A DNA stretch of 64,000 nt from Candidatus Omnitrophota bacterium. Lineage in GTDB: Bacteria > Omnitrophota > Omnitrophia > JAHJGZ01 > JAFGJY01. The stretch spans positions 1,996-65,995 of the forward strand of contig JAFGJY010000019.1 in NCBI GenBank assembly GCA_016928875.1. Direction: 5' to 3'. Both the position numbers and the translations under genes were made by a program. The notes under the pieces were generated by a model. It was not told the DNA's origin. It saw nothing but the letters and a program-made list of their open reading frames with translations, and made no database searches. Below, one piece after another: positions 10,343 through 41,210 of the stretch (positions within the stretch are counted from its first letter, which is position 1; the number at the start of each line of letters is the position of its first letter).

Positions 10343-10441
10343 AACTCTATTTGCGAGCTAAAGACACGTTTAATGTTTTCGGATGCAGCTGTTAACTCTT
10401 GCGTTCCGATCGTCTCAACGGTCCGCAGGTCTACGATCAGC
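10343..10441. repeat. about 100-bp remnant copy (~95% identity) of the 3' end of the ABC exporter gene 33025..34791
   Basis: Near-identical to 33022-33130 (aactctatYtgcgagctaaagacacg...ggtctacgatcagca), which encodes the ABC C-terminus ...VETIGAQELTAASENFKRVFSSQIEF; here it lies intergenic between the rSAM gene and precursor P2. Confidence 0.8.
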
Positions 10442-10529
10442 AAAGATGGATTTACAATTTAAAGGATTTGCTTTGCACATCGCGAGATCCGTTGTGAAAT
10501 GTTAATTAGCTTATGAATAATTAAAAAGG

Positions 10530-11432
10530 TCAATACCCGGCAAACAATCCTCGTAGGTTCTCATGCTGGATCATTTTAGCAGGTCCTCTTTGGATACTTT
10601 TTACGAAGCAATTACAATCAAGAACTGAATAAGAATATTTCCTCCTTAATGCCTCTTCCATGATATCGTACACTAATCCATTATCGTACAAGTGCATTTC
10701 GTGGCATTGATAGATCTCAGCATCAGGTAATATTTTTGCGATTTTGCGGCGATTATATTGAGTTACTTCTATTTCACCTATATTTACATGATCTACGCCG
10801 ATATCCTCAATAATGGGCAACATCTCGAAGAGCTTTGTTTTATGCGGAGGCCATGCCGGTGTTTCAACGGTTAGCGCTTTAAAATACTTCCTGGCTAGGG
10901 ATACGTTTTTGTAAACGTCCTTTGAGAAATTTGATGCACCGAGATGAAACCGTATTTCATCAATGCCAAGGTCTCGGAGCTCCTCAAGTATATCTTTGGT
11001 CGCCAAAACTCCGTTTGTGTAAAGGTAAAACCACGGGCTTCCCTTAGTCTCCTTTTTGATATCATTGTACACCTTCATATATTCTCTAATGGTCTTCATG
11101 TACAAAAGTGGCTCACCGCCTCCGCTAAAACTGATCGAAGTTGGGCGATAATGAGGCTCACGCGATTCCCGTATTATTGACGTAATCGTATTGAGCAAGT
11201 CGATCTTTCCAGGTTCTTTCATTTTGTAAAAACAATAACAGCAATTGAGATTACACTTTGCTCCCGTAAGTAGATTGCGATGATATCTATCATAGACGAA
11301 ACAACTGCCGCACCCGGGAGAGATTTTTCCAATATGCACGCAATGTCCACTGGCGTGATATTGAAGCTCTTTGATGGCTTCCTGTCGCTTGAACTTTCTT
11401 GTGTATGCTTCTTGTATAGATAATAGTTTCAT
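10530..11432 (-). CDS. radical SAM protein (no SPASM domain seen)
   Basis: CNLNCCYC (CxxxCxxC) plus SFSGGGEPLL glycine motif; extra N-terminal Cys pair (GCGSCF); start taken at MKLLSIQEAY to avoid overlap with the kinase. Confidence 0.65.
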   Translation of the reverse strand: MKLLSIQEAYTRKFKRQEAIKELQYHASGHCVHIGKISPGCGSCFVYDRYHRNLLTGAKCNLNCCYCFYKMKEPGKIDLLNTITSIIRESREPHYRPTSISFSGGGEPLLYMKTIREYMKVYNDIKKETKGSPWFYLYTNGVLATKDILEELRDLGIDEIRFHLGASNFSKDVYKNVSLARKYFKALTVETPAWPPHKTKLFEMLPIIEDIGVDHVNIGEIEVTQYNRRKIAKILPDAEIYQCHEMHLYDNGLVYDIMEEALRRKYSYSVLDCNCFVKSIQRGPAKMIQHENLRGLFAGY

Positions 11433-11436
11433 CTCT

Positions 11437-12393
11437 TTAAATACGGCTTTCTGAGGATCGTGATAACTTCCTGACAAACGTAATTATGCTCTTGTCATTG
11501 ACAAATCCCAATCGGTAACACGGTACATTTTTTATTACATGCTGACATAATGAGGCAATGCTTTCTAACCCTTCCTTATCCCAGAACGTGGGAAACAATG
11601 CCGGATACAATAATTTAAATGCCTCTGCCCCGGAGACCTTCTCGGCAACATTTTTTGAAGAGTGATGAATGAAAAACAAGACATTAAGTCGGGCAGATTC
11701 TATCTTAGAGTCAAGATAATCGCTAAATTCGCCATGCCACGGAGAACCATAAATAACGAATGTTCCCGCTTCTTTACGCACAATGATCCGATCGTCATTT
11801 AAGACCATGGCTTTCGTGTGCTTATGCCACAGTCTCGCGGTCGTGGTTTTACCATCGCCTGATTTACCAGCGAAAACAAATCCTCTGCCATCAATATCTT
11901 TTACGCCGATAGCATGGGTGAATATACCTTGATTTCTTTGAGCAAGATAATTTATCAAAAGGATCTGCAAAAAGTCGTAAATGATGTCTGATGTTGTCCA
12001 CACATACCCTGCACTCTTTTTAGGCAATAGATATGCGGTTACTTTATCAAAGGTTTTATTCACTACCATAAGCTGCTTTTTATTCGCGAGTGGACAGGTA
12101 AAAATATAGCCCTTTTCGTTCTTAAATAATCTCCAGTTTTCACTGCCGTCCTCAAAATGGTATGTAACAAACAACCGTTTTTTCTTCGTTATTGCAGGCA
12201 GTTTATTAACGATCTTGATCTTAACATTGATGTGTGGTGTCCGGTTCCCCTTGCAAAAGAACTTCTCGTAGCGTTCAAGCCTTTGCTCTTGCTTGACTTG
12301 CTCTGTGAGCGTTTCGAGCGGGAAGCGGCTTGCAAGTCGAATAACCACATCAGAGATCTTTAACGTAATTGTTCCCTTTCCAGAGAGCTTCAT
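11437..12393 (-). CDS. HPr kinase-related P-loop kinase-like protein (paralog 2)
   Basis: FAGKSGDGKTT...VLNDDRIIV block homologous to the other three paralogs. Confidence 0.6.
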   Translation of the reverse strand: MKLSGKGTITLKISDVVIRLASRFPLETLTEQVKQEQRLERYEKFFCKGNRTPHINVKIKIVNKLPAITKKKRLFVTYHFEDGSENWRLFKNEKGYIFTCPLANKKQLMVVNKTFDKVTAYLLPKKSAGYVWTTSDIIYDFLQILLINYLAQRNQGIFTHAIGVKDIDGRGFVFAGKSGDGKTTTARLWHKHTKAMVLNDDRIIVRKEAGTFVIYGSPWHGEFSDYLDSKIESARLNVLFFIHHSSKNVAEKVSGAEAFKLLYPALFPTFWDKEGLESIASLCQHVIKNVPCYRLGFVNDKSIITFVRKLSRSSESRI

Positions 12394-12414
12394 AGTTCAC
12401 CTTTATTTGACCGT

Positions 12415-13284
12415 TTACATTGGAATATGCGGTTGATACACAATTCTATTCACTCCACTGTGCTTATACTCCCGTAGGCGTAATCGCGCGTTTTTATAGA
12501 ACTGTGTGTTGCCTCTAAGATAAATGATCTTAGGCATGGTTCTATGCCTCAGCTTAAATATATACCTCTGACATTCTTTTGCGCATGCCCTGATCCTGAG
12601 CAATGACTTCTCTTTCTCTTCACACCCGGCCGTAAGGCAATAAAAGGTCGTACTAATATAAACATACGGCACGTAAACTGACGCGCCTATTTTGTCTTTT
12701 GGTAATGCTAACGACAGGCCTTGCTCAGTATTATCTAACTCTATTCTGCTTATGCGCTGAGAAATTAAAAAATCGTGAATGATCGGGACGCTTGCCGTAT
12801 TTGAACCTTTGTAATACGGGTCTACTCCCGAAGGAAGCGGTTTTTGAATAAGAATAGTCCGCTTCCCAGGATTTATATAATCTACCATAAGGCGTGGTGT
12901 TACCTCTCTCTTAAGTAACGATATTATACGAGGCCCTCGTTTCTGCTTAGTAAGTAATCTGCCCAATACCGGAATAAGATTGCGATACTTACTGTTAACT
13001 AGACTTAACACTCCCCAATCATTAACTATTACCTCACACGTAATATCTTCTGACTTTAAATATTCAAACAATACCTGCAACTCCTCTAAACCACTATTTG
13101 TCACACACGGGCTCACAAGAGAAAAAGCTAATCTGCTCTGTTTGGTGTAATGTATGACGGTCTGAAGATCCCGTAATGAAGGAATGAGTCGTTCGCAGAA
13201 CTCATTACCATAATACAGTCTGGTATACATGTCATCCGCGTCGGTCAATTGAGCGATATTAGTAATAAAGAGAGCTTTTTCCAA
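12415..13284 (-). CDS. peptidase U32 family protein, short UbiV-like form
   Basis: N-terminal RLYYGNEFCE (compare UbiV VIYLGETVC) and C-terminal Cys cluster YCLTAGC..x12..C..x3..C resembling the U32 Fe-S ligand pattern; paralog of 16303-17205. Confidence 0.5.
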   Translation of the reverse strand: MEKALFITNIAQLTDADDMYTRLYYGNEFCERLIPSLRDLQTVIHYTKQSRLAFSLVSPCVTNSGLEELQVLFEYLKSEDITCEVIVNDWGVLSLVNSKYRNLIPVLGRLLTKQKRGPRIISLLKREVTPRLMVDYINPGKRTILIQKPLPSGVDPYYKGSNTASVPIIHDFLISQRISRIELDNTEQGLSLALPKDKIGASVYVPYVYISTTFYCLTAGCEEKEKSLLRIRACAKECQRYIFKLRHRTMPKIIYLRGNTQFYKNARLRLREYKHSGVNRIVYQPHIPM

Positions 13285-14163
13285 TTAGCTATCCTCTCCT
13301 TTTACGAGAACATTTTTACTCCCAGAGAAGTAGAAGGATATTTTGCCGTGCGTATCTTTCTTCGCGAAGATCAACTTATCGCGTATGTAATGGTCTGCAT
13401 TTACAGGACAAAAACTTTGGCATATTCTGCAGACCGATTTTTGATCGTACACCGCTTCATCCCAAATAGCATCTTGTTTACATGCTCGCCCTATCAGAGT
13501 CAACGTATCATTAACGACACGTTTACAGTGATCTTTGTGTGAAGCGAATAACGAGAAATTGTCGATCTGTTCACTAGGACATGCGTTCACGCAAATAGTG
13601 CAATCTTTACACCCGGGATATTCTTTGGGGTGCATGGGGGTGTTATAGTACATTTTAGTTTCGGAAAATAGCACCTGCAGTTTAATGTCAGAGCCAAATC
13701 GTGGATTGATGATCAACGAATTTTTACCGAATTGCCCCAGGCCCGCATAGTACGCAATGTCTTTCAGTAAAAGTATTTTATTTCTGGTGTCATAGCCGGT
13801 ACGTTTCAAATATGAATATTCATTACCGACAATATTCTGTTTATCCGGTTTGTTATCTCTGTCCAACACATGTGTTTTGATGCGTAATTTCTTCCATAGG
13901 ATAACGGCTACTTCCAATATAATATCTTCTACCGAATAATCCAATGCTATTGGCGTGTAATGTGCCAGAATTATTATGGATTTGACCGTGGGCATCACAT
14001 CGCGGGGCCGGGCACTGTATTTCGGCCCGCCGTATTCGAGAGGAATATGACACAGGTGTGAGTCACATCGTTCTAAATGCTCCGGATCGCAAATCCCAAT
14101 GTGGCATATTTCTCGCAACGCATTCGGCAATAATGCTTCTATATCTTGAGCGTGTATTTTCAT
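13285..14163 (-). CDS. QueG (epoxyqueuosine reductase)-like 4Fe-4S dicluster protein
   Basis: GCKDCTICVNACP and CRICQSFCP ferredoxin motifs in a QueG-like arrangement; paralog of 21073-21798. Confidence 0.55.
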   Translation of the reverse strand: MKIHAQDIEALLPNALREICHIGICDPEHLERCDSHLCHIPLEYGGPKYSARPRDVMPTVKSIIILAHYTPIALDYSVEDIILEVAVILWKKLRIKTHVLDRDNKPDKQNIVGNEYSYLKRTGYDTRNKILLLKDIAYYAGLGQFGKNSLIINPRFGSDIKLQVLFSETKMYYNTPMHPKEYPGCKDCTICVNACPSEQIDNFSLFASHKDHCKRVVNDTLTLIGRACKQDAIWDEAVYDQKSVCRICQSFCPVNADHYIRDKLIFAKKDTHGKISFYFSGSKNVLVKGEDS

Positions 14164-15215
14164 TTACGATACCCCCCCTCGAGTATTACTGAAGGATGGT
14201 AACAATTATTACCTCTACATTGATCCGCATAGTTAAACGTTGTTTGATACAAATGTTGTACTTGATGGATAAATTCTATTTTTGATATACCGTTATTATT
14301 CTCTATAATATCTAAAACCGCTCGGATAAATCGTGTACTTGTAAACCTCTTTTGCGCATCCAGCTGTCGTCCAACGATCTTAAGTAATGAAATCTTAGTC
14401 TTATTGATATCGTATAGCGCGCAGGCCCCACATTGCACGCCGTCAATGAGGTGTTTGTGAAAAGTAGGCCGTATATCAGGCTTTGTGACCTTCTTCCCTT
14501 CGTGATCGAATGTCTCAACAGAATAATCTAACCAGCATGCATCAGATTCTGCTTGCGGGTCGTACGCTGTAGCAACATGTAGCCGCTGCTGAGCGCCCCA
14601 TTCTTCATGTGAAATGTCCTCCGTTGAATCTCTCCCCGCTGTATGCAGGAACGTACAAAAGCCATCAGTGTAAACACAGAGTGTATTTAAGACAAAAACC
14701 TCGAACGCTATATCCGGATTATCATCCGACAACGTTCTCATTGATTCCAGTGTTGTTTGTCGATCCAAGACAATACGTGACGCACCTAACCTTTTATAGA
14801 ATCGTACCGCTTCGGAGTTAAAAACTGTACCACCCGTAGAAATATGGATCTGCCGCGTACATCCCATTTCTCGTAATGTCAACAAGAGACCAATATCAGC
14901 TACGATATAACTATCGATATCGATGCCCTCAAGCTGAGAAATAATTTTGAGCAGCAATGGGTATTGCTCTTTCACGTACAATCCATTCAATGTCAAATGA
15001 ACAGGTGTATTTCGTGAGTGTGCCAACGTAACTGCTTCCGTCAACTCTTTAAGATCCGTAAAATTACTGCCGCCCCCCTTGCGTTCGAACTCAAACGCCG
15101 TGTATTGTCTCGCCCATTCGGGCGACATATATCCACAATATAATTCATCTGCTCCCGCATCGATCAGACGCATTACTTCTTCTTTTTCTTTAAATGGCGC
15201 AATGATCTTTAACAT
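14160..15215 (-). CDS. peptidase U32 family protein, long UbiU/RlhA-like form
   Basis: IDAGADELYCG...FTDLKE..HLTLNG..ADIGLL..GASRIVL TIM-barrel blocks and the U32 signature-like EVFVLNTLCVYTDGFCTF; start chosen at MLKIIAPF by alignment to UbiU. Confidence 0.65.
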   Translation of the reverse strand: MLKIIAPFKEKEEVMRLIDAGADELYCGYMSPEWARQYTAFEFERKGGGSNFTDLKELTEAVTLAHSRNTPVHLTLNGLYVKEQYPLLLKIISQLEGIDIDSYIVADIGLLLTLREMGCTRQIHISTGGTVFNSEAVRFYKRLGASRIVLDRQTTLESMRTLSDDNPDIAFEVFVLNTLCVYTDGFCTFLHTAGRDSTEDISHEEWGAQQRLHVATAYDPQAESDACWLDYSVETFDHEGKKVTKPDIRPTFHKHLIDGVQCGACALYDINKTKISLLKIVGRQLDAQKRFTSTRFIRAVLDIIENNNGISKIEFIHQVQHLYQTTFNYADQCRGNNCYHPSVILEGGYRK

Positions 15216-15261
15216 ACATTTAAAACACCGTATTCGACATGAAATGTAATTACATGATCTG

Positions 15262-16299
15262 TTACACGAGAGTTTGTTTCTTGGCACGCTTCGCCAGTTC
15301 ACAATAATACGTCACGGGATTATCCATAGCACCTGTTTCTACCAGTGCTCTGCCAGGACATGAGAGGCAGTATTCTCTGGCCTCGCAGTCGTAACATTGT
15401 GAGCCTGCAGTAAGTTCCTTGCCATGTACTAATGGCAGTAATCTATTTGAGATACGTTCAATATCATCTTTAAGTACATTATATGATGGTTCCCGTATCA
15501 AAGTGCAAAGAAACATCTTCCCATGTGGATCGATGTATACGCAGTTCCTGCCGGCGATCGCACAGCGAAATAGATCGTTCGTATGCTCACGTGACGAGGT
15601 AGGCCCACAAATACCACCTTCTTCAACTTTATTATGTAGGTGCATAAACTGATCTGGAGATATTCTTAAACTGCACGGTGAAACATCCCCATTTAAACGT
15701 GCGTATAAAATATCATCCGGACGGAATTGTAACCCGAATCCCTCAACAAACTCCTTTATTTGGGGTAGATGAACGAGATTATCAGTCGTTACTTGTGTTT
15801 TGATCTTAAGTGGGATACGTGCACTCAATATCGATCGTACCCCATTCATCACTCTATCAAAAGAGCCTTGCACTTGGGATATTGCCTCGTAAACATCTTT
15901 TGTGACACCATTAAGGGTAACCTCGACCACAAAAGGAGGCCTTTTCTCAAGATACTGTGCGATCTCTTCTGTCAATGAATAGGCACTTGTAAATATGGTA
16001 ATAATGAAGCCTTTGCCCTTGGCATAAGAATAGATCTCCAGAAAATCCTCTCTCATTAACGGGTCTCCCCCCGTAAAACAAAGCCATAGTATACCTTCAT
16101 CAAATATCCTATCCAATATTCGCTTGACCTCATCGGTCTTTAATTCGTCCTTGCGGTACTCTGGCGTATTGTAGCACTCAGTATAACAGTGTTTGCAGTG
16201 CAGTCCACATCCAAAGGTAAGCTCAAACTGACAGACATTGTGCCGTTTGTTTTTCAAGTGAGTATCTAAGCTGAACGTTCTATATTGTATTTCTTTCAT
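15262..16299 (-). CDS. radical SAM/SPASM domain peptide-maturase-like protein
   Basis: CGLHCKHC (CxxxCxxC), FTGGDPLM, C-terminal SPASM Cys array CYDCEAREYCLSCPG; close paralog of 21791-22864 and 24262-25353. Confidence 0.8.
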   Translation of the reverse strand: MKEIQYRTFSLDTHLKNKRHNVCQFELTFGCGLHCKHCYTECYNTPEYRKDELKTDEVKRILDRIFDEGILWLCFTGGDPLMREDFLEIYSYAKGKGFIITIFTSAYSLTEEIAQYLEKRPPFVVEVTLNGVTKDVYEAISQVQGSFDRVMNGVRSILSARIPLKIKTQVTTDNLVHLPQIKEFVEGFGLQFRPDDILYARLNGDVSPCSLRISPDQFMHLHNKVEEGGICGPTSSREHTNDLFRCAIAGRNCVYIDPHGKMFLCTLIREPSYNVLKDDIERISNRLLPLVHGKELTAGSQCYDCEAREYCLSCPGRALVETGAMDNPVTYYCELAKRAKKQTLV

Positions 16300-16302
16300 G
16301 AT

Positions 16303-17205
16303 CTAAAACGGTAATTCGGGTTGATAAACAACTCTATCTACATCATATTGTTGTATAAGAGCAGCGTTTAAAGGATTACGGTAAAAAACGGTATTGCCTC
16401 TTTTGTAGATAACTTTTGGAATTGCGCGATTTCGTAATATGTCGTAATACCGCTGACATTCTTTTTTACACACATTGATACGATATATCTTTTGGAATGT
16501 AGTTTCCATAGGACAAAATCGGGTCGTAGAGATATTTACAAATGGTGTATAAATGGACTTCTTACACGTGATCCCCTTCACATTCAGGCCCTGAATAAGA
16601 TTATTCAATTCTACTCTGTTTATGCCGAACGTGCTTAAAAAAGCTGCGAATGACGGTGAGTTCACATAGGATGCCTTAACACCCTCTTGGTATCGTTTAT
16701 CGGGGACCTTATGGACAAATATCCGTATTTCCCCATCCTTGCCTTTGGCAGCGACGGGTAATTGCTTTCGAATAATGTGCCCCATAGACGGGTCTCTTTG
16801 TTGACGCACCAACAGCCTGCCAAATGCAAGTTCAAAGCGCCCATCACATTCACTCTTTAGATACTGCAACACCCCCCAATCATTTATCACTATTTCACAC
16901 GATATGTTAGCTTCTTTAAACCAGATGAATGTATCGCGTAATCTCTGTAAGCCGTGCTCTGTAACAAAAGGGGTAACATACGTAAATCCGAGCCCTTGTT
17001 TTTCAACTCGTTCAAATACTTTTTGTGTCGCTTCGAGCGGAGGGATCAAATTCTGACAAAACTCGTTCCCCCAATACACTCTATGATATTCATCATCCTT
17101 GAGATATTTCATTCCATTAATACTCACTACATGTACGGCCTTTTCTGTTGACGTAATAGATCCCTTGATCGACCGTTCTGAAGACATTGTAATTGCCATT
17201 GTCAA
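16303..17205 (-). CDS. peptidase U32 family protein, short UbiV-like form (paralog of 12415-13284)
   Basis: RVYWGNEFCQ N-terminal motif; C-terminal FC..x..C..x3..C cluster. Confidence 0.5.
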   Translation of the reverse strand: MTMAITMSSERSIKGSITSTEKAVHVVSINGMKYLKDDEYHRVYWGNEFCQNLIPPLEATQKVFERVEKQGLGFTYVTPFVTEHGLQRLRDTFIWFKEANISCEIVINDWGVLQYLKSECDGRFELAFGRLLVRQQRDPSMGHIIRKQLPVAAKGKDGEIRIFVHKVPDKRYQEGVKASYVNSPSFAAFLSTFGINRVELNNLIQGLNVKGITCKKSIYTPFVNISTTRFCPMETTFQKIYRINVCKKECQRYYDILRNRAIPKVIYKRGNTVFYRNPLNAALIQQYDVDRVVYQPELPF

Positions 17206-18464
17206 AGCACCTCACTTGACAGACGACCACCTACTTCTATCATATATAGTGTTTTGTACGATAATACCGTGAGTACTTCATCAGGGGGATCAAGTTGTTT
17301 ACTGACGTGCAGAAGACCTTGTGCTATCTCATCATATGAACTGCTCTCTGATATTATCTTAGATAATCGTTTTTTTATTAATGTAGCCTTTCCCGATTGC
17401 ATGCGATATTTTTTCGTGATCTTGAGAATGATATCTACAAGCATGCTCCTGATCTTTATGTGTGCTTTATCGAGTTTGTCTTTAAGGTGATAACTTTCAG
17501 CAAAATAAATGTCTTTATATTCATATGTTGTAAACGTTACATGTGCACGAGAATGACGCAGAATAAATTCGAGCATTATCTTGAAATCGTTGAAACTCTC
17601 CCCTGGATAACCAATAATTAGAATAAGCGTGATCTTTGTCGTACTGCAATATCTTTCCATCCACGATAGAAATGACATAAAATCTTGCATCTTGAAATCT
17701 TTACCAACTAACTTTATAAGTCGATCAGTTACCGTAATTAATGATATACGCATTGAATCTATCTTGCCTGATTTCAATATTGGTCTTAACTCATCTGCAT
17801 ATGATAGAAATTCAGGGTTCATACAATCAAGTCCGATCCTGTAGTTGCCAGATATTTTCAATATTCTATTCAATAAGGCAGCTAAGTTCGTACCGATGTC
17901 CCATCCGTATATCGCAGTATTCTGAGCAACGAACGAAAATCTTTCATGCTTATCTTCGAGCCCCCTCTTAAACAATGCAATAATGTCGTCTGGATCAAGG
18001 CTGCGAAGCTGGCCAAAACCGTATTTATCAACGCAAAACGTACAATCTTGATAGCACCCTTTAGCAATATATATTGAGTATAAACCGAATTGATTCACGA
18101 ACGGTTGATTGATCGTGTTAAATGGATGTGTAACACCCAAAATAGAATCTAAGTGATCTAATTCTTCATTTAATAAAAATATGATGCCTTCTCTGTCCTT
18201 GATCAGACCCTTTCTCGACGAGAGCACGCCGGTAACAATAAATAGTGCGTTGCTATTCCTATTATTATTTAAATAATCGATAGTTTTTATGGAATCTTCA
18301 TAATAAAACAAACATGTATCACATATCACGACATCTGCTTTCTTAAGATCGTTCGTAAACAGATACTCATTTATCGTCAGGTAGTTTACGAGCAGGGTTC
18401 TTTCCAAAAAGTGTTCTTGATTACCTTCTGAGACACCTTGGAAATACACGGTTTTTGAACTCAT
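17202..18464 (-). CDS. MiaB/RimO-like methylthiotransferase-family radical SAM protein (divergent N-terminal domain)
   Basis: MTTase-like N-terminal domain (VVICDTC resembles MiaB VLLNTCS) but the first cluster Cys is replaced (FQGVSEGNQ versus TWGCQMN); rSAM motif AKGCYQDCTFCV matches MiaB EGCNKYCTFCV. Confidence 0.6.
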   Translation of the reverse strand: MSSKTVYFQGVSEGNQEHFLERTLLVNYLTINEYLFTNDLKKADVVICDTCLFYYEDSIKTIDYLNNNRNSNALFIVTGVLSSRKGLIKDREGIIFLLNEELDHLDSILGVTHPFNTINQPFVNQFGLYSIYIAKGCYQDCTFCVDKYGFGQLRSLDPDDIIALFKRGLEDKHERFSFVAQNTAIYGWDIGTNLAALLNRILKISGNYRIGLDCMNPEFLSYADELRPILKSGKIDSMRISLITVTDRLIKLVGKDFKMQDFMSFLSWMERYCSTTKITLILIIGYPGESFNDFKIMLEFILRHSRAHVTFTTYEYKDIYFAESYHLKDKLDKAHIKIRSMLVDIILKITKKYRMQSGKATLIKKRLSKIISESSSYDEIAQGLLHVSKQLDPPDEVLTVLSYKTLYMIEVGGRLSSEVL

Positions 18465-18503
18465 AGGGATTTCCTCTTTAATAAAGACAAAAAATACATA
18501 TCA

Positions 18504-20039
18504 TTAAATACTACTACGCCGTGGGAGCATTCCGTTGATTTTGATCAATTTATCGACGTCATCCCTGGATATGGTACCAAGCGAATGTGTAAAGGGATAA
18601 ATAAATCTAAAAGGGAGTTCACCATCATAGGCATAGCGTATCCCATACTGTTCGGGGTCATTAAATACGGCATTATTCGGTGTCAGATAGTAAACGTTAA
18701 TGATAGGTTGTACATTTGGATACTCAACGAGCGAACAAACGGTATCCAGGGCTTCATCAATAGTTTCACTGGGAAGCCCGATCATTACCTGGCAACATAT
18801 TTTTAGCCCCACATCAGAGGCGTCCTTAAGGATACGTTTTGCAACATTTGTTCGTATGCCTTTCTTACAAAAGTTAAGGACTCGCTGGTTCATTGATTCA
18901 AGGCCGCAGACCAATTCGAAGCACCCTGCTTTCTTAATAAGCCTCAATATATCTTTGGTAATAGAATCTTCTAATCTCGAAAAAGACGACCATGCGATCT
19001 TGATATTTTCCCGAATGAGGGCATTACTGAACTCCTCCATTTGGCGTGGAGATAACACCGCATTTGAGATCAGTACGCCGTAACAATTATGCCTTTCCTT
19101 AAGTTCTTTAATGTCCCGTATCACTAATTCTATATTTTTTTCCCGATAGGGCACTTTAGGAAGCGGAAGGTCAACGCAAAATATACATTTATCCCAATAA
19201 CATCCTCTTGATGTTTCATAGGTAAGTGACAATTTGCCCTCTACATTTTTATGGTGCTCTAAGGGGATGCCTTCAAAATCAGGACACGGTAATGCGTCAA
19301 TGTCTTCCTTCGATCGCACGTTAGATGGCACAAAAGTATCGTTACGTTTGAATATCAGGTTCGGAACGTTCGACAGTGGCGTATTTCTCTTAATGGCATT
19401 TATAAGCGAGACCAAAGGGGTTTCACCCTCGGAATAGATCATGTAATCGTAAAACTCGCCGAAGTCACTTCGCTTGATAAGTTCTTCTTTGAATAAGGTT
19501 ATCCATTGGCCTCCCACAACTACTTTGATTTGCGGTATCTCAGATTTTATGACACGGCCGAAGGTGAAGGCGGAAATTACTTGTGAAGGTGCTGTAATGG
19601 ATATACCGACCATATCGTACTTATCATCTTTGATACGTTCGAGGATCTCTCTTTTAAAGAACGCTTTGAATGTATTTTCTTCTTCATCGTCGATATATCG
19701 AAACAAGTTATGTGAAGAAAGCAACTTCTCAGTAAAGTCAAAACGAGCGCCGAGTACCGGATCTACCGGTTCACTGAAACTATTTTGATTTCTATACTGA
19801 ATATCTTTGTAGTAATATACCTTATCCCGTATTTTCTCGTTCCTATACTGCTCTGTTACTATGTGATCGAGTTTATTATTGATAATATAGTTATAATATT
19901 TGTGATCTAAGTCGTCTTGATGCGCATCGATGCCCTGAGCTCTCAAAAATGCAAGAAGCGACGGTGTGCTGAGCGGCGGATGGCCTGTGTTAAATGCCGG
20001 AGGAATTAAGAGTAATATTTTAAATTCAGTGTTTTTCAT
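18504..20039 (-). CDS. B12-binding-domain radical SAM protein (class B-like)
   Basis: N-terminal Rossmann-like B12-binding-type region, then rSAM with the unusual spacing CYWDKCIFC (Cx4Cx2C); 511 aa. Confidence 0.55.
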   Translation of the reverse strand: MKNTEFKILLLIPPAFNTGHPPLSTPSLLAFLRAQGIDAHQDDLDHKYYNYIINNKLDHIVTEQYRNEKIRDKVYYYKDIQYRNQNSFSEPVDPVLGARFDFTEKLLSSHNLFRYIDDEEENTFKAFFKREILERIKDDKYDMVGISITAPSQVISAFTFGRVIKSEIPQIKVVVGGQWITLFKEELIKRSDFGEFYDYMIYSEGETPLVSLINAIKRNTPLSNVPNLIFKRNDTFVPSNVRSKEDIDALPCPDFEGIPLEHHKNVEGKLSLTYETSRGCYWDKCIFCVDLPLPKVPYREKNIELVIRDIKELKERHNCYGVLISNAVLSPRQMEEFSNALIRENIKIAWSSFSRLEDSITKDILRLIKKAGCFELVCGLESMNQRVLNFCKKGIRTNVAKRILKDASDVGLKICCQVMIGLPSETIDEALDTVCSLVEYPNVQPIINVYYLTPNNAVFNDPEQYGIRYAYDGELPFRFIYPFTHSLGTISRDDVDKLIKINGMLPRRSSI

Positions 20040-21076
20040 CGCTTTACAAAGGCCTCGTCTTTAAAAACCGAAGGGTAATAACAGTCATAACGATTGCATG
20101 TAACGTGAAACACCTTTTTAAATAACGTCTTACATTTTTGCACGTATTCTTTTTTTGAAATAGCATCATCGATCAAGAATCCTAATGATTCTTTAATAAA
20201 TAATGTTGCTTTTACTTTCTCTTCCAAGGGTAAATTTCTATCCAGGACTTTTAGGTTACGAGCGCCGATCCTCATTAAGTCATATATAGCACAGGCACCA
20301 CAGCCTTCGATGTCCCGGTCCATCCAATATTTAAACGGTATTGAAGAAGTTTTATTCTTAGTTTTATTTAAGAAGACTCTTTGTCGACGAAATCGGCTCC
20401 GACATCCGCCGGCAAAGCCGCGCTTCGATATACGTGAGGAGCTATAAAAAAAGATGTTTTCCCTTCCAATTCCCTCTTCATTCAATTCACCGGTATCTTC
20501 TTTGCAGTACGTGCAAAGGCCGTCTTCAAAATAACATTGGTCATGGATAATGAATATTTCATATTCCATGTCCGCGTCGTGTATTATCACGTCCCGGATT
20601 TCGCCGATTGTCATTGCTCTAGGTAAAACCACCCTCGTCGCACCCAATGATCTATAAAATTCCACAGCACTGCTATTACAAATGACAGCATCCGTACCGA
20701 TCACGACATCTTTACCACTCAGCACCGCCGGATCCATACGTATAAGCAATGCTGGGTCTGCAAATATTATCCCATCAGCGCCCGCAGACAATACGTCCCG
20801 AATAATACGCTCTGCCATCTCATATTGTTCATCTAAATAATAAAATGCGTTCATAGCAACGTGAACTTTAACACCATGCTTATGAGCTACAGAAATAGCG
20901 TTATCAAGATCAGCCAGTTTCGTAAAATTAGCATGTGACGAACGCTGGTTAATACTAAAGTTTTTATATCTCTTTCGCCAGCTATGCGGTTCTATGCCAC
21001 AGAACAACTCATCAGCCCCCGCCTCACACAACGGTTCCACTTCATAAATATGCGCTAAAGGAGATTTGATTCTCAT
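20036..21076 (-). CDS. peptidase U32 family protein, long UbiU-like form
   Basis: CEAGADELFCG...FTKLAD...HVAMNAF...ADPALL...GATRVVL and a C-terminal Cys cluster DQCYFEDGLCTYC; start set at the internal Met, giving an ATGA overlap. Confidence 0.65.
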   Translation of the reverse strand: MRIKSPLAHIYEVEPLCEAGADELFCGIEPHSWRKRYKNFSINQRSSHANFTKLADLDNAISVAHKHGVKVHVAMNAFYYLDEQYEMAERIIRDVLSAGADGIIFADPALLIRMDPAVLSGKDVVIGTDAVICNSSAVEFYRSLGATRVVLPRAMTIGEIRDVIIHDADMEYEIFIIHDQCYFEDGLCTYCKEDTGELNEEGIGRENIFFYSSSRISKRGFAGGCRSRFRRQRVFLNKTKNKTSSIPFKYWMDRDIEGCGACAIYDLMRIGARNLKVLDRNLPLEEKVKATLFIKESLGFLIDDAISKKEYVQKCKTLFKKVFHVTCNRYDCYYPSVFKDEAFVKR

Positions 21077-30820: not shown

Positions 30821-30823
30821 ATT

Positions 30824-32587
30824 TTACCCATTTTTACTTAATTGTTCTTCCATTTGATTACGAAAAAAATCTCTGTATACCTGGCTTCCTGATAATAGTT
30901 GCGCATGAGTACCAACTTCTATTTTCCCCTGATTTAAAAAATATATCCTTTCTGCGTCTTTCACTGAAAACAATCTATGTGAAATAATTATAGTGTTTAA
31001 ACCTTGCCTTTTATCTCGTAAGGCCCGAAATATCTTTTCCTCAGTATGTAAATCTACGGCAGAAGTGGCTTCGTCGAGAATAAGCAAGTCAGGGGCTCTC
31101 ACTATGGCTCTCGCCAACGCGATCCGCTGTTTAAGACCTTGTGATAAACGACAGGCGTCTTCACCGATAAAACTATCATAACCATCGGGCAATTGGCTAA
31201 TATAATCATGCACAGAGGCGATCGATGACGCGGCTTCTATTTCTTTCCGGCTCATTCCTTTTAATCCATAGGTGATGTTTTCGCATATTGAAACATCAAA
31301 TAGAAAAGGTTCTTGAGTAGCAATAGTAATGCGTTTGCGTAATGATGTTAATGTTATGTCCTTCAAGTTTAGCCCGTCTAAAAGTACTTCGCCCGCCCAA
31401 GGCTCGTATAGCCTGATCAATAAGTTCATTAACGTGGTTTTACCACTGCCAGAAGGGCCAACGAGCGCCACCCAGGAGCACCCGGGAACATCTAAATTAA
31501 GCTCGTTAAATATTGGCCGATCTTTCTGATATCCAAATGATACATTTTTAAAAGAGATATCTCTATGTATCGACTTTAATGTTTTTGCACCGGCACTATC
31601 CTTTATCTGTGGTTCTATATCCATGACCTCGAATAATTTATCGAACGATACCGCTTCCTGAATAAGATACCCGAATCTGTCCCCCATAGCCTTGAATAAA
31701 CAACCAAGTTGAGTCAAATAAAGCATTACTGCTGTATAGCTGCCGATGCTTATTTTATTATCAATTATGAGCATGCCTCCATAAAACGCAACTCCGCCAA
31801 ATATAGCTTTGGATAAAATAGAAGAACCCACAGAGTTAATGATTGACCAACGAAAGCTTTTGATCCCCCATCGAATATTTTTGATCAAATGTTTTGTGTA
31901 TGTTCGCCTTTGAAAAGACTCGAGGCCAAAAGCCTTAACGATCAGCATCTTGGAGAAACCTTCGTGAATGATGTGGGCCAACTGTGCACCATGCTTCCAA
32001 ACTTCCTCATAAAGTGGCTTCAATTTATTCTGCAGATATATATTGGGAATTATAAATAGAGGACATACAATCAGGAAAAATATAGTCATCCGAAGATCGA
32101 TCCATAATGAAATTACTAATATGATCGAGATCTTGCAAACATCAATCAAGAAAGATGGGCACTGTTCAAGTATAATATTGCAAAGTGTCTCCGTATCAGA
32201 AAGTCTGAATATATTTTCGCCTATTGATTTTGACCGAAAATATTCAAGATCCAGGGAGAATAACTTCTTAATATACTTATCTGCGATATTAAGTCTTATC
32301 TTTATTGATATCCTATTTTTTATGACATCTCGCATAACACCCACAAACATGCTAAAGAGAAATACTATCACTCCGACAACGGATATATCAAGAAATGTAT
32401 CTATATCTTTAGTTAAAAAAGCCTTATCTATGAACAACTTTGAAATTAATGGCCCCACCAAATAGAATATTGAATTGACCAATCCAAATAAGAACAAGAT
32501 GATAATATTTCTCTTGTAAGCGTAGAACACTTTTAAGATGCGATGTGTTGTATTTACTTTATTCTGTTTTGCTAATGTGCAATTCAT
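30824..32587 (-). CDS. ABC exporter, fused permease/ATPase (type I exporter; no C39 peptidase domain)
   Basis: 6-TM N-terminal half; Walker A GPSGSGKTT, LSQGLKQRIALARA, Walker B LILDEATSAVD. Confidence 0.85.
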   Translation of the reverse strand: MNCTLAKQNKVNTTHRILKVFYAYKRNIIILFLFGLVNSIFYLVGPLISKLFIDKAFLTKDIDTFLDISVVGVIVFLFSMFVGVMRDVIKNRISIKIRLNIADKYIKKLFSLDLEYFRSKSIGENIFRLSDTETLCNIILEQCPSFLIDVCKISIILVISLWIDLRMTIFFLIVCPLFIIPNIYLQNKLKPLYEEVWKHGAQLAHIIHEGFSKMLIVKAFGLESFQRRTYTKHLIKNIRWGIKSFRWSIINSVGSSILSKAIFGGVAFYGGMLIIDNKISIGSYTAVMLYLTQLGCLFKAMGDRFGYLIQEAVSFDKLFEVMDIEPQIKDSAGAKTLKSIHRDISFKNVSFGYQKDRPIFNELNLDVPGCSWVALVGPSGSGKTTLMNLLIRLYEPWAGEVLLDGLNLKDITLTSLRKRITIATQEPFLFDVSICENITYGLKGMSRKEIEAASSIASVHDYISQLPDGYDSFIGEDACRLSQGLKQRIALARAIVRAPDLLILDEATSAVDLHTEEKIFRALRDKRQGLNTIIISHRLFSVKDAERIYFLNQGKIEVGTHAQLLSGSQVYRDFFRNQMEEQLSKNG

Positions 32588-33015
32588 TTATTATCTCGTA
32601 CTTTCTTCCGAATAATACCATGCAACGGTTTAAATAGTGTAAGCAAGGGTGCTAATTCTACTATCGCCCGATTAATATATCTGTATCTGCGCTTCGTAAG
32701 ATCGATCATTGTATCATTTTTCAAAATCCCTACCACTTTACCTAATAACATTTCGTTAGTTATACATTCAGGCGCCGACGGAGAATTGTCCCCGCGGACA
32801 TAAAGATGGCTTTTTTTTGCGTCTAGGGACCTTCTTATTAAGCGATGGCAAACCATTTGATCGTTTATTCGATACAATATGATATCGCCGATCACTAGGT
32901 CCTTGAGAGACACTTTTTTGATCAGCAACTTTTGTCCTTGCCTCACAAATGGCCACATACTAAAGCCAATGGCATCAATAAAAATAATATTCTGAAAATC
33001 TCTATTTAAGCCCAT
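32584..33015 (-). CDS. S24/S26-family (signal peptidase I-like) serine peptidase
   Basis: 143 aa; nucleophile motif IGFSMWP (GxSMxP) and GDIILYR...VCHRLI block. Confidence 0.55.
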   Translation of the reverse strand: MGLNRDFQNIIFIDAIGFSMWPFVRQGQKLLIKKVSLKDLVIGDIILYRINDQMVCHRLIRRSLDAKKSHLYVRGDNSPSAPECITNEMLLGKVVGILKNDTMIDLTKRRYRYINRAIVELAPLLTLFKPLHGIIRKKVRDNK

Positions 33016-33024
33016 AATATAATA

Positions 33025-34791
33025 TCACCTAAACTCTATCTGCGAGCTAAAGACACGCTTAAAGTTCTCGGATGCAGCTGTTAACTCTTGCGCTCCGATC
33101 GTCTCGACGGTCCGCGGGTCTACGATCAGCATGATCTTCTCACAATGACGGATAGCTGACAATCGATGCGAAATAACGACAATAGTCGCACTCGGTATCA
33201 GTTGCCGTACATTGGCAAATATATCCGCTTCGGTTGCACTGTCAACGGCGGAGAGCCCCTCATCCATAATTAGAAATTCCGGCTTTTTCAGTAATGCCCG
33301 CGCCAGCGCAATACGCTGCTTTTGTCCTTGCGATAGCTTCACCCCTTCTTCACCGATCATCGTCTTATACCCGTCCTTAAGCCCCGTTATGAATGTATGT
33401 ATCTCACTCATACGACATACTTCTTCGATATCAGAGAACGATGCTGGCAAATGTCCGAAACGCACATTATCCTCAATAGAACTGTTCATAAGAAGCGGTT
33501 GTTGCATTACCATTGCGGCTTTTTCATAGAATGATTTTTTATTAAGGCACCTAAGGTCATTATCACCGATCATGATCGAACCCTCTTGCGGAGATAACAA
33601 ACCAAGCAATAAATATGCTAATGTGGTCTTGCCACATCCGGAATGTCCGACGATCCCCAATGACTCGCCGGGCTGTATCGAGTAGTCGATGTGCTCTAAT
33701 ACCGATTTTCCTGCGCGATACGCGAACGACACATGTTTGACCCTTATTGTCTTATCCAGTAGCGAATCTATCAAAACGCCTTTCTCTGTTGTGACTATGT
33801 TATGTTCATCATGTGCCATGATCTCATTGACCCGTTTGCAGCTTGCCGCTGTAACGACGAGCCTCCGTAACATGAAGGAAACGTGAGACTGTAGCGATAC
33901 GATCTGTCCGGCATAGGCAAGTATTGCGCTCAGCGTCCCAAGCGTGATATCTCCCCGAATGACGCGCACGCATGCATAGATACCTATTACACCAACAAGA
34001 CCGCGCGTTATGACATTGTGTGAGATCATGAGAATAAATTCGAAACGTGCTATCTCGATCGATCGGCGTATGTGCGTTACCAGATCACCGATAATGGAAT
34101 GCTTGATGTACCGCTCGCGATTAAATGCCTTAATGAGGAGAACATGTGCGAATAGTTCGCGAACACCCATTAAAATACGTTCAAAGTATTCCCACAATCC
34201 CGTGTGAAGACTGCGGATCTTTTCATGCGTAAGGAAGATCGGCAATGCAATGATCGGAGCGGCTATGATAAAGAACAGCCCGACTGTGCGATCAAGGATA
34301 AATATAAAATAAAATGAGAAGACCATGCGCGGCAACATCTCGACGAATTCGATCGGGATCGATGTCAACGATTCAGAGATCCGGTCAGTATCGAACATGA
34401 TCCTGTTGGTACCCTGGCTGGAATCGTTATCTATATGGAAACTGATGTCGCGTTGCAAATAACAATTTATGACCTTGTGCCGCAACAAAAACGCGACCTT
34501 GTTCTTCACTATGGTTTGATACATTTGCCGCCATTGTGTGGCCAACAGAGACACACCGCTCAATACTGCGCCAGTTATCGCGATCATAAAGAACAATTGA
34601 AAATCCTTTTCCATTATTCCCTTATCGATCCCCTGACGCATAAACATCGGCAAAAGCAACGTTATACATAAGGGGATCATCGAGGCGAAAGAAAGCATAG
34701 CAAGCGCACGTCGATATCGCCTCACGAAAGGAATGAAGCGCAAACATTCGACGAGTGAATCTTTAATGGATACGATCGAGCGTAGGTTCAT
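33025..34791 (-). CDS. ABC exporter, fused permease/ATPase
   Basis: GHSGCGKTT, LSQGQKQRIALARA, LIMDEGLSAVD; 6-TM N-terminal half. Confidence 0.85.
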   Translation of the reverse strand: MNLRSIVSIKDSLVECLRFIPFVRRYRRALAMLSFASMIPLCITLLLPMFMRQGIDKGIMEKDFQLFFMIAITGAVLSGVSLLATQWRQMYQTIVKNKVAFLLRHKVINCYLQRDISFHIDNDSSQGTNRIMFDTDRISESLTSIPIEFVEMLPRMVFSFYFIFILDRTVGLFFIIAAPIIALPIFLTHEKIRSLHTGLWEYFERILMGVRELFAHVLLIKAFNRERYIKHSIIGDLVTHIRRSIEIARFEFILMISHNVITRGLVGVIGIYACVRVIRGDITLGTLSAILAYAGQIVSLQSHVSFMLRRLVVTAASCKRVNEIMAHDEHNIVTTEKGVLIDSLLDKTIRVKHVSFAYRAGKSVLEHIDYSIQPGESLGIVGHSGCGKTTLAYLLLGLLSPQEGSIMIGDNDLRCLNKKSFYEKAAMVMQQPLLMNSSIEDNVRFGHLPASFSDIEEVCRMSEIHTFITGLKDGYKTMIGEEGVKLSQGQKQRIALARALLKKPEFLIMDEGLSAVDSATEADIFANVRQLIPSATIVVISHRLSAIRHCEKIMLIVDPRTVETIGAQELTAASENFKRVFSSQIEFR

Positions 34792-39627: not shown

Positions 39628-39765
39628 ATGTAAATATTTCCATTCATGGGAGCGAGTGCGGTTTATATTTTAGATAATTTACGTTGGAAGAAACTACTAT
39701 ATTATAATATGATTGAACAATCAATAATTAATTTGCTAATCATTTATATTGAATAAGTTAGCGCT

Positions 39766-40959
39766 ATGGTACCATACCGCAAAGACCTGACCGAAAAACT
39801 TCTGATGTTCATCATGAAACATGATGCGCGCGATCTTATTTCTGCAGACGCCCTTGAGCATACTGACTGGAGCACATTCCTGCCGTTCGTGCGCTATCAC
39901 GGTTTACATAGCATGTTGTACCCGCTGCTCAAGCCCTTTCGTGAGCATATCCCCCATGTGCATTACGCTAGTTTTCATAAATCGTATTTTCAAGCGATCG
40001 CATTCAATGTGCGGGCAAAAGGATCATTTATGAAGATCAAAGATCTTTTTGACGGGAACGGTATCCAACTCGTACCGCTTAAAGGTATGGCGCTCATCTT
40101 CGATATTTATTCCTCGCATCCCTCGCGGCCAATGTGCGACCTTGATATCCTGATCACAGATAGTGATTACGAACGAGCGAAGGATCTTCTTAAGCAGATC
40201 GGATACATTAAAAATGTCTCTGATGATAGTGAACACTACTGGCGCAATGAACAGATGCACGTGAGCTTTGGTCCGAGAGACGGTACATTACCATTGTGTA
40301 TACTTGAGATGCACTGGCAGCTTGATTACACGCGCAAGTATCCCCTTTTGTCTGATCTCTGGCACCGCGTCCGGACTATCCCTGATGAAGGCGATGAAAT
40401 TGTGACCCTCTCGCCGGAAGATACACTGTTCTCGCTGGCACTACATCAGCGAAGGTTTGGTGCGCCACTCCAACTTAAGTATGCGTTTGATACGGCGTTG
40501 CTCTTTAAAAAGTATGAGAATAGTATTGATATTGATTATCTTATAAGTGAAGGCCGCAGGTCGCGGATACGATCGGCCCTGTATGCCCTCGTCAAGCAAT
40601 GTTCTTTTTTTTACTCTGATACGTCGGTTGAAAGATTACTAAAGGAATTACACATCTCAACGCTACGCAAGAACTGCCTGGACGCAATGATCAAAAAGAA
40701 CACATTTGAAATACAGAACAACACAAAGCAGCTGTTTGCCACCCTGCATCTGTTCCTCTTTGATAGCTGGAACGAACCATTATTCTACATGCTGAACATA
40801 CCCTATGTGCAGTTCTGCAAATATTACGGTCTTCTCCCCGGGCAGAAATATTCCCGCTTCTTGTACTCTCTCCGTTATTTTTACTATGGAATTGGGCTGA
40901 TACAATTAGGTGTGCAAAAGCTGTGTTTTTTACTACGGGGCGAAGCGGAGAAAAGATGA
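39766..40959 (+). CDS. nucleotidyltransferase-fold family protein (RiPP-cluster associated)
   Basis: PLKGMALIFDIY...CDLDILI matches the pol-beta NTase G[SG]x(n)DxD motif; the family is known next to HprK-like kinases in lasso-peptide clusters. Confidence 0.5.
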   Translation: MVPYRKDLTEKLLMFIMKHDARDLISADALEHTDWSTFLPFVRYHGLHSMLYPLLKPFREHIPHVHYASFHKSYFQAIAFNVRAKGSFMKIKDLFDGNGIQLVPLKGMALIFDIYSSHPSRPMCDLDILITDSDYERAKDLLKQIGYIKNVSDDSEHYWRNEQMHVSFGPRDGTLPLCILEMHWQLDYTRKYPLLSDLWHRVRTIPDEGDEIVTLSPEDTLFSLALHQRRFGAPLQLKYAFDTALLFKKYENSIDIDYLISEGRRSRIRSALYALVKQCSFFYSDTSVERLLKELHISTLRKNCLDAMIKKNTFEIQNNTKQLFATLHLFLFDSWNEPLFYMLNIPYVQFCKYYGLLPGQKYSRFLYSLRYFYYGIGLIQLGVQKLCFLLRGEAEKR

Positions 40960-40980
40960 ACGATCGTTCCCCTGCGTTCT

Positions 40981-41210
40981 TTACAAAGGAAATAGTAACG
41001 GGCCGGCCCCGCCGATACAATCATTAGGCGAAGGACCTGCCGTACAGCTACCAAAAGAGTATCCTACCTCACAAAACCCAGGATGCATGATCGAATTATT
41101 AGTGTTCCATGCGCCGCTCGCAGCATTACCGTGGCCACATGCTAAACATGAGCCGGATACCCTTGGTTATATTCAAAAACTTGTGGCGCAGTATAATGTT
41201 TTTTCGATAT
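40981..41210 (-). pseudogene. decayed precursor gene of the KK-Y-x-x-P-x-I family (start lost, 1-nt frameshift)
   Basis: The minus strand reads ..SKKHYTAPQVFEYNQGYPAHV* then, in the +1 frame, CGHGNAASGAWNTNNSIMHPGFCEVGYSFGSCTAGPSPNDCIGG..*; the DNA aligns to P3 (41228-41473) with ATG changed to TCG and a 1-nt deletion. Confidence 0.6.

Follow-up and report, generated by a model that had tools for sequence, protein, structure and literature searches.

Gene remnants and candidate insertion scars in a peptide-modification locus of an uncultured Omnitrophota bacterium

The locus and its gene remnants

The DNA considered here, referred to as the window, is a stretch of 64,000 nucleotides from a 74,033-bp contig (JAFGJY010000019.1) of a metagenome-assembled genome of the uncultured Candidatus Omnitrophica/Omnitrophota. 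Domain scans of its open reading frames (ORFs) reveal a peptide-modification locus of ~45 kb, carried almost throughout on the minus strand and with core-like genes on both sides. Three damaged copies of genes of this locus, fragments (i) to (iii), had been described in an original prediction as traces of cassette shuffling; all three are confirmed as real, far beyond chance. On balance they are considered to be non-functional remnants, the first two of which would represent junction scars of segment insertions rather than the leftovers of duplicated cassettes. The remnants and the intact sequences with which they are compared are as follows.

10333..10442, minus strand: fragment (i), the psi-ABC1 tail, 90.9% identical over 110 nt to 33022-33131 by self-BLASTN (E = 6e-36)
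33022..33131, minus strand: parent of fragment (i), the 3' end and stop codon of the intact gene ABC1
33025-34791, minus strand: ABC1, an ATP-binding cassette (ABC) exporter
30740..30813, minus strand: fragment (ii), a psi-TPR piece corresponding to codons ~388-412 of gene 26058-27545, with a 1-nt deletion
26309..26383, minus strand: parent of the psi-TPR piece, inside the intact peptide-arginase-like/tetratricopeptide repeat (TPR) gene 26058-27545, here called arginase-TPR
30814..30878, minus strand: the final 17 codons of ABC2, its native 3' end, which overlap a retained arginase-TPR start
30824-32587, minus strand: ABC2, a further ABC exporter
27546..27628, minus strand: reciprocal scar, the psi-ABC2 tail, reading GGMLHTQPMAERASYRNFFRDQIGDKH and a stop and filling the entire 83-nt spacer between GT1 and arginase-TPR
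40984..41243, minus strand: fragment (iii), a pseudo-precursor (psi-P) in tandem to P3, with a 1-nt deletion, the homologous ATG lost and one conserved Cys changed to Trp
41228-41473, minus strand: P3, an intact precursor and the reference for psi-P
44496..45229, minus strand: probable HprK/ScmC-like kinase pseudogene downstream of precursor P5, frameshifted, with its P-loop decayed to GPADQGKPT and truncated at about residue 245-272
44352..44495, minus strand: psi-methyltransferase tail, a copy of the final ~48 codons of gene 45530-46189 interrupted by two in-frame stops

Self-BLASTN of the window, the check originally proposed, gives significant off-diagonal matches for fragments (i) and (ii) (E = 6e-36 and 1.4e-12 respectively). 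A census of the spacers, in which every protein of the window was compared by tblastn with the window's non-coding DNA, recovered fragments (i) and (iii), missed (ii), and added the methyltransferase tail, which was absent from the first reading; no comparable remnants were detected by this census in 17 kb of core DNA. The remnants match intact genes at significant levels (E values from 6e-36 to 2e-11, with the kinase pseudogene weaker at 1.8e-4), and a truncation or disabling lesion is present in fragments (i) to (iii) and in the methyltransferase tail.

Within 35 kb, one type of scar is seen three times, in that the terminal ~30-50 codons of ABC1, ABC2 and the methyltransferase gene recur just upstream of the gene that follows the candidate insert. 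For the ABC1, ABC2/arginase-TPR and methyltransferase pairs alike, the two copies lie in the same orientation around that insert. A distinct composition, together with an independent existence as a module elsewhere, is found for the largest of these, Block L, while neither a compositional difference nor independent-module status was seen for the 3.2-kb and 1.2-kb inserts.

Block L between the two copies of the ABC1 tail

Fragment (i) had been predicted to be a copy of the end of an ABC gene lying between a radical S-adenosylmethionine (radical-SAM) gene and precursor P2, and this is what is found, at a lower identity than the ~95% proposed. It consists of the final 35 of the 588 codons of ABC1 plus the stop, with TTG replacing ATG and TAA replacing TGA, and its translation (LLIVDLRTVETIGTQELTAASENIKRVFSSQIEFR, stop) can be set beside the C-terminus of ABC1 (MLIVDPRTVETIGAQELTAASENFKRVFSSQIEFR, stop). 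The radical-SAM gene 10530-11477 ends 87 nt before the fragment and P2 begins 60 nt after it, and the similarity between the two copies is gone within ~10 nt past the stop codon. These form direct repeats in the same orientation, at 33131-33022 and 10442-10333, which are 22,689 nt apart and enclose most of the features listed below.

10530..33015, minus strand: Block L, ~20 consecutive genes (~22.6 kb) with a low GC content at third codon positions (GC3), bracketed by the two ABC1-tail copies
within Block L, minus strand: an S24-like peptidase, ABC2, SGNH-TPR, GT1, arginase-TPR, PqqD and a putative precursor (25494-25745)
also within Block L, minus strand: six radical-SAM genes (one B12-dependent), three U32-like genes, an HprK-like gene and a PflA-like radical-SAM gene
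25757-26044, minus strand: the PqqD-family gene of Block L (Pfam E = 1e-14)
25494-25745, minus strand: the putative precursor of Block L, 83 aa, beginning MAKKPKFKPEITRVKLNPEQAVLACTC and unrelated to precursors P1-P5
10036-10275, minus strand: precursor P2

A near-consensus sigma-70-like promoter (TTGAGA-17-TATAAT, 11 of 12 consensus positions) is present at 10299-10327 on the minus strand, between the ABC1-tail remnant and P2, which may thus have a promoter of its own.

The composition of Block L sets it apart from its surroundings. Its 19 scored genes have GC3 values of 0.34-0.44 (mean 0.395), lower than the 0.41-0.58 (mean 0.505) of the remaining cluster (Mann-Whitney p = 6e-7), while the mean of the core flanks is 0.58. 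Fitting two change points to GC3 places one break at 10192 (support 10072-10252) and the other at 32878 (support 32638-33097), with a gain of 78 log-likelihood units, and in plain GC the upper break, at 33025, coincides exactly with the stop codon of ABC1. Tetranucleotide correlations among the core, the H part (33-46 kb of the cluster) and the left part (2-10 kb) are all 0.85-0.88, as against 0.71-0.77 between Block L and each of them.

The gene content of the block suggests that it makes a product of its own, as it has both a PqqD gene and a putative precursor; the first gene map admitted ORFs of at least 100 aa, and so left out the small genes of 25494-26044. Gene 26058-27545 combines an N-terminal UPF0489/PF12640 domain with TPR repeats and matches the FlmR/OhkR family of peptide arginases, at a score of 57 bits that falls far short of the NCBIfam cut-off of 350. 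UPF0489/PF12640 is now recognised as a peptide arginase family (OspR/FlmR/OhkR) of clusters for ribosomally synthesised and post-translationally modified peptides (PMC12703449), and it is in this gene that Block L resembles those clusters. The three U32-like genes (14160-15302, 20036-21100 and 22861-24255) each have a radical-SAM paralogue as partner in the region 13285-24255, on the minus strand, and two of the three sets also include a 4Fe-4S protein and a conserved gene of unknown function, an unusual repeated set for a peptide cluster.

Core genes of Block L are syntenic in Omnitrophica RIFCSPLOWO2_01_FULL_45_10 (L037), at 34-61% amino-acid identity: 61% for the homologue of radical-SAM gene 10530, 46% for the B12-radical-SAM gene, 46% for PqqD, 45-46% for two radical-SAM genes and 34% for arginase-TPR. 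There the set adjoins genes for pyruvate:ferredoxin oxidoreductase, and no homologue of genes specific to the H part (precursors, HprK-like kinases, ABC1 or NTP_transf_5) was detected in the 12 kb examined, up to the end of the contig. Homologues of radical-SAM gene 10530 number in the hundreds, at 52-71% identity among the hits listed, and come from Omnitrophota, Patescibacteria and other metagenome-assembled genomes. In none of the loci inspected is such a homologue followed by an ABC1-like gene, which argues that the orphan tail is not native to the end of Block L. This PflA-like gene (10530-11477, minus strand) shows much stronger conservation than the maturases around it; it is given as 230 aa in the NCBI record, as against ~300 aa for its homologues. 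A scan of metagenomes with the gene found nothing.

The part of the cluster that would have received Block L is of a different kind. Its best family matches are to ScmA, C, D, E and F of the SynChlorMet cassette (NCBIfam TIGR04248-04252), with bit scores of 337 for ScmF (cut-off 400), 166 for ScmE (400), 69 for ScmC (125), 26 for ScmD (100) and 18.6 for ScmA (35). Four of these five families rank first for genes of this host part and ScmD ranks third, and none of the five passes its NCBIfam cut-off. The likeness to SynChlorMet and to the peptide arginases is therefore below threshold throughout, and these families describe gene content, not the fragments. A second PqqD-like gene (36494-36802, minus strand), whose best hits are lasso-type and ScmD-like, lies in an apparent 370-nt spacer of the SynChlorMet-like part.

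A smaller, proposed insertion at the end of ABC2

The original prediction of fragment (ii) as an internal copy of the TPR gene holds, with slightly shifted coordinates and a larger extent. The match of 30740-30813 to 26309-26383 (84% identity over 75 nt, with one 1-nt gap) is continued by a match of 30814-30878 to 27528-27587 (74% over 65 nt, E = 2.4e-4), in which the arginase-TPR start is retained as the ATG and five further codons (MGKIFL). The psi-TPR piece abuts this start directly and out of frame. The stretch at 30.74-30.88 kb thus reads as an arginase-TPR copy that has been almost wholly deleted, the start, of six codons, being fused to a piece of ~25 codons from near the 3' end.

A reciprocal remnant is found at the other end of the interval, where the psi-ABC2 tail compares with the ABC2 terminus ...GTHAQLLSGSQVYRDFFRNQMEEQLSKNG (stop) and its own stop overlaps the ATG of arginase-TPR (TAATG). 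Which of the two tails is original is indicated by Omnitrophica GWA2_41_15 (L001; contig CAKKQB010000028.1, 35% GC), the one informative relative from a scan of genomes for ABC2: the motif Y(R/K)DFF(R/H)NQ of the ABC2 tail is conserved in its ABC2 orthologue, hence ABC2 has its native tail, and the remnant is the copy at 27.6 kb. Together, the reciprocal tail and the conserved motif support a former adjacency of ABC2 and arginase-TPR. The cluster in that genome includes three radical-SAM/SPASM genes, GT2, the ABC2 orthologue (56% identical) and NTP_transf_5 (36%), and contains no match to precursors of the P1-P5 type.

The copies of the ABC2 tail and arginase-TPR start (30878-30814 and 27587-27528), again in the same orientation, bracket 3.2 kb of DNA containing SGNH-TPR, GT1 and a decayed copy of a promoter-tRNA-Val-tRNA-Asp operon. 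The counterpart of this operon stands at the boundary of the cluster with the core.

46571..47030, minus strand: resident tRNA locus at the cluster/core boundary
46571-46648, minus strand: tRNA-Asp
46666-46740, minus strand: tRNA-Val
46830-46964, minus strand: truncated psi-tRNA-Val just upstream of the live tRNA-Val, with a ~39-nt insertion in the D-loop and a second inserted repeat
29069..29349, minus strand: decayed promoter/tRNA-Val/tRNA-Asp copy between SGNH-TPR and GT1, in the 3.2-kb insert

Two alignments link 29069-29349 to 46581-47030, each over 150 nt, with identities of 77% (E = 1e-23) and 71% (E = 3e-14), and no tRNA is called in 29069-29349 by ARAGORN. The ~39-nt hairpin insertion in the D-loop of tRNA-Val is common to this copy and to the psi-tRNA-Val at 46830-46964, the tRNA-derived parts of which are 100% identical to the live tRNA-Val.

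Decay in the precursor and kinase array

The remaining remnants lie among the precursor and kinase genes. The locus has five Cys-rich precursors with leaders of the type KKxYxxPxI, of which P2 and P3 have been given above, and the others are listed here with the kinases.

2054-2251, minus strand: precursor P1
42839-43087, minus strand: precursor P4
45230-45487, minus strand: precursor P5
within the locus: four paralogous HprK/ScmC-like "kinase" genes

Fragment (iii) had been predicted to be a precursor gene with a 1-nt deletion and a destroyed start. The deletion is present, and splits the reading of psi-P relative to P3 between ...ISKKHYTAPQVFEYNQGYPAHV (stop) in one frame and ACGHGNAASGAWNTNNSIMHPGFCEVGYSFGSCTAGPSPNDCIGGAGPLLFPL (stop) in another; the loss of the start is partial, as the ATG homologous to that of P3 is gone and an in-frame ATG remains 10 codons upstream of it, at 41243. 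The 23-nt leader string said to be shared with P3 has exactly two occurrences, at 41152-41174 and 41403-41425 on the minus strand, where none is expected by chance, and tblastn of psi-P against P3 gives E = 9e-20. The proportion of synonymous sites that differ (pS) is 0.68, with a ratio of nonsynonymous to synonymous proportions (pN/pS) of 0.39. This suggests an old paralogue inactivated late, rather than recent shuffling. The tandem unit of psi-P and P3 is a single gene of ~250 nt, and not a cassette.

The kinase pseudogene of the original prediction is probable at about 44496-45229, where the sequence follows the profile of the four paralogous kinases collinearly, with weak statistical support (tblastn E = 1.8e-4 for a search space of 3 kb). 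Right after this truncated pseudogene, and 6 nt upstream of the HprK-like gene 43240-44346, is the psi-methyltransferase tail, which has 52% amino-acid identity to its parent over 48 residues (E = 2e-11) and 72% DNA identity over 95 nt. Its copies have the same orientation (45682-45588 and 44495-44401), and this is the third case in which the tail of an upstream gene stands ahead of a downstream gene.

A proposed history of assembly and its alternatives

The arrangement of these remnants suggests a nested assembly, in which a SynChlorMet-like cassette beside tRNA genes received a module at the stop codon of an exporter gene, and the module in turn received a small piece of chromosome. Block L would have entered the SynChlorMet-like cassette where ABC1 and P2 probably adjoined, through recombination anchored in the 3' region of ABC1, for which a single crossover involving a circular intermediate and homology-facilitated illegitimate recombination are both conceivable. 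By either route ABC1 would stay intact, with a second copy of its tail landing beyond the insert, and the empty site is predicted to join the ABC1 3' end ...AGATAGAGTT[YM]RGGTRATA to the sequence upstream of P2, TTTCTTGAGACACATGACATAATGCCG. Within the block, ABC2 and arginase-TPR may originally have been adjacent and translationally coupled, until a 3.2-kb piece carrying SGNH-TPR, the copy of the tRNA-Val/Asp operon and GT1 split them, the redundant copy of arginase-TPR then being almost wholly deleted. Fragment (iii), the kinase pseudogene and the methyltransferase tail would reflect an old local duplication in the precursor/kinase array, followed by late decay.

Several observations weigh against this history. 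No integrase, recombinase or transposase domain was detected in any ORF scanned across the window, which itself comes from a metagenome-assembled contig. No close relative, and none with either an empty ABC1-P2 site or fragment (i), was found in the genome and metagenome collections searched, hence the insertion is drawn from one sequence. The original prediction had also proposed a search for the same fragments in related genomes, and the 25-nt core common to both ABC1-tail copies had no match in the metagenome contigs searched. The lower boundary of Block L falls beside fragment (i) in the GC3 analysis alone; in plain GC it is at 9175 (support 9100-9375), not 10.4 kb, being pulled down by AT-rich spacers. 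The GC contents of the two ABC1-tail copies are 0.51 and 0.46, and as neither is low, the copy borne by the insert cannot be told from the other. The ABC2 orthologue in the GWA2_41_15 cluster is followed by NTP_transf_5 and not by arginase-TPR, which argues that adjacency of ABC2 and arginase-TPR is not general. Finally, the ratio of substitution types in fragment (i), considered below, is based on only 10 substitutions, and the live copy has always been under selection.

The original prediction attributed the remnants to repeated duplication and recombination of precursor-kinase-exporter cassettes, the fragments being what is left of lost copies, and this is now regarded as improbable. The numbers of genes are suggestive of it, with five precursors and one pseudo-precursor, four HprK-like genes and one probable pseudogene, mostly arranged as kinase-precursor neighbours, and the methyltransferase tail adjoins a kinase gene. 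However, although the remnants do record rearrangement, no precursor-kinase-exporter unit recurs in the window. The paralogues are just 22-37% identical (26% between the exporters ABC1 and ABC2, 25-31% among the four HprK/ScmC-like proteins and 22-37% among the radical-SAM proteins); this implies that the gene duplications are ancient, whereas the 110-nt copy that is 91% identical must be much younger. The exporters are found once each, apart from the kinase-precursor pairs, fragment (i) brackets compositionally foreign DNA and no paralogous cassette, the source of fragment (ii) is arginase-TPR, which is no member of a cassette, and psi-P and P3 are an old tandem of a single 250-nt gene. What survives of the cassette proposal is a local duplication of genes in the precursor/kinase array and their decay, covering fragment (iii), the kinase pseudogene and the methyltransferase tail; it does not extend to (i) or (ii).

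It is similarly unlikely that a second complete ABC1 once stood upstream of P2 and was deleted except for its last 35 codons, which would make the position of Block L incidental. The copies of the tail differ by six synonymous and four nonsynonymous changes (pN/pS = 0.21, binomial p = 0.017), a preponderance consistent, under the insertion history as well as here, with the divergence of two functional ABC1 genes prior to the orphaning of one tail, and most of the divergence of both fragments (i) and (iii) appears to predate inactivation, though the sites are few. There is also a weak signal of a possible older and heavily decayed ABC-like remnant immediately upstream of fragment (i):

10443..10529, minus strand: possible ABC-like remnant, reading ISQRISRCAKQIL, a stop and IVNP where ABC1 has ISHRLSAIRHCEKIMLIVDP

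This aligns best at the collinear position of ABC1, with marginal support from shuffling (p ~0.03 for the whole protein and 0.009 for the local segment). Against such a deletion, the intergenic tblastn census identified no ABC1-derived DNA other than fragment (i), and the model needs at least one duplication, one deletion and a coincidence with both compositional boundaries.

An artefact of assembly, whether a chimera of two populations joined at a shared ABC tail, or frameshifts that are sequencing errors, is very improbable. The metagenomic origin of the contig, the differing composition of Block L and the fact that two of the lesions are 1-nt indels would all be in keeping with it. However, exact matches between the ABC1-tail copies reach no more than 25 nt (13-19 nt for the other repeat pairs), which is shorter than the final k-mers that assemblers normally use, and chimerism is unlikely for this reason. 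A chimera would also require two separate false joins, and psi-P lacks its start and one Cys besides being frameshifted, while the other remnants are truncated and not merely frameshifted. That the fragments are functional, whether as small ORFs or as conserved elements, RNA or regulatory, ahead of P2 and SGNH-TPR, is scarcely credible: fragment (i) is an open frame of 35 codons with a stop at the homologous place, but the fragments fold as RNA no better than shuffled sequences (z = 0.15-0.59), the only Rfam matches are the two tRNAs, the sigma-70-like promoter of P2 (10327-10299) is outside the repeat and fragment (ii) is frameshifted.

Two further explanations were rejected. One large tandem duplication behind all of the repeats is ruled out, since the repeat pairs are interleaved, the succession on the minus strand being tRNA copy 1, ABC1 tail 1, ABC2-junction copy 1, tRNA copy 2, ABC2-junction copy 2 and ABC1 tail 2. 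Rearrangement by a transposon or miniature inverted-repeat transposable element (MITE) was discarded as no transposase domain was found in the ORFs scanned, and the repeats resembling repetitive extragenic palindromic (REP) sequences are away from the junctions of fragments (i) to (iii).

Relation to known systems

The process proposed for Block L is a known one, of which the locus is a fresh example rather than a new element or mechanism. Orphaned 3' ends after anchored recombination have been described for Rhs and type VI secretion system (T6SS) effector loci (PMC5361080), and the 'C-terminal displacement' in effector-immunity arrays of Rhs, contact-dependent inhibition (CDI) and T6SS loci has been attributed to homology-facilitated illegitimate recombination (PMC5361080). 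Those arrays share with the present locus the succession of an intact gene, acquired DNA and, downstream, the old 3' end of that gene in the same orientation, with no integrase. They differ in that the anchor here is an ABC exporter and the insert a 22.6-kb module, rather than a toxin tip with its immunity gene, and in that a single orphan is present at the ABC1-P2 site where those arrays have strings; the mechanism would be the same here only by analogy.

Campbell-type integration by a single crossover yields direct repeats of the homologous segment. The direct repeats flanking Block L and the intact upstream gene are as expected of it, although the repeats are only 110 nt long and 91% identical, and no circular donor or replicon is known. 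In tRNA-associated genomic islands, the typical repeat is a short att site at the 3' end of the tRNA gene. Here too a low-GC cluster abuts tRNA-Val and tRNA-Asp genes (46571-46740), with a decayed second copy 17.7 kb away in direct orientation, but that far copy is of the whole operon, promoter and both tRNAs, at 71-77% identity and within the low-GC block; no integrase domain was found in the ORFs scanned, and the intervals interleave with those of other repeat pairs. Biosynthetic gene clusters are known to evolve by the merger and insertion of sub-clusters (PMC4256081), and the nesting of Block L, conserved also in L037, within another cluster is of this kind, with the difference that the junction scars, not usually reported, are still readable here.

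The scars suggest the order in which a composite locus of ~45 kb was assembled in an uncultured phylum. They also help in assigning its genes to pathways, which matters for the expression of such clusters, and an orphaned gene tail together with a step in GC3 makes a simple signature of nested clusters. By analogy, peptide clusters of this lineage might routinely gain modules through integrase-free recombination anchored in the 3' ends of genes, much as T6SS and Rhs arrays gain effector tips, with exporters as docking sites; this generalisation is doubtful at present, but if it were true, the sequence of acquisitions could be read from the orphan tails.

Other genes and repeats

The core flanks and the rest of the locus contain the following.

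2-1858: pabB-like gene, core flank on side 1
from 47 kb: MoxR/DUF58/BatD, type IV pilus and signalling genes, core flank on side 2
within the locus: two radical-SAM/SPASM genes with best matches to ScmE and ScmF
within the locus: PqqD-like, NTP_transf_5 and S24/S26-like peptidase genes

The locus also holds a long series of radical-SAM, U32-like, B12-radical-SAM, glycosyltransferase and TPR genes. ABC1 has a single exact database record, its next relative being 48% identical and on a 2-kb contig; exact look-up of P2 and of gene 4482-5873 returned no record.

A second short repeat, inserted in the anticodon stem of the psi-tRNA-Val (46845-46886), recurs in a spacer of the MoxR/BatD operon (50604-50646), at 93% identity over 43 nt. 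The REP/MITE-like repeat is a palindromic intergenic sequence of ~75-95 nt with the core GTCGTCCCCGCGAAAGCGGGGATC...CCGGGACGAC, which matches no Rfam family. Block L contains none of its six copies in the window and the H part contains one; all are listed here.

37356-37445: REP/MITE-like copy
47103-47196: REP/MITE-like copy
49366-49459: REP/MITE-like copy
54097-54168: REP/MITE-like copy, reverse
54856-54942: REP/MITE-like copy
59630-59713: REP/MITE-like copy

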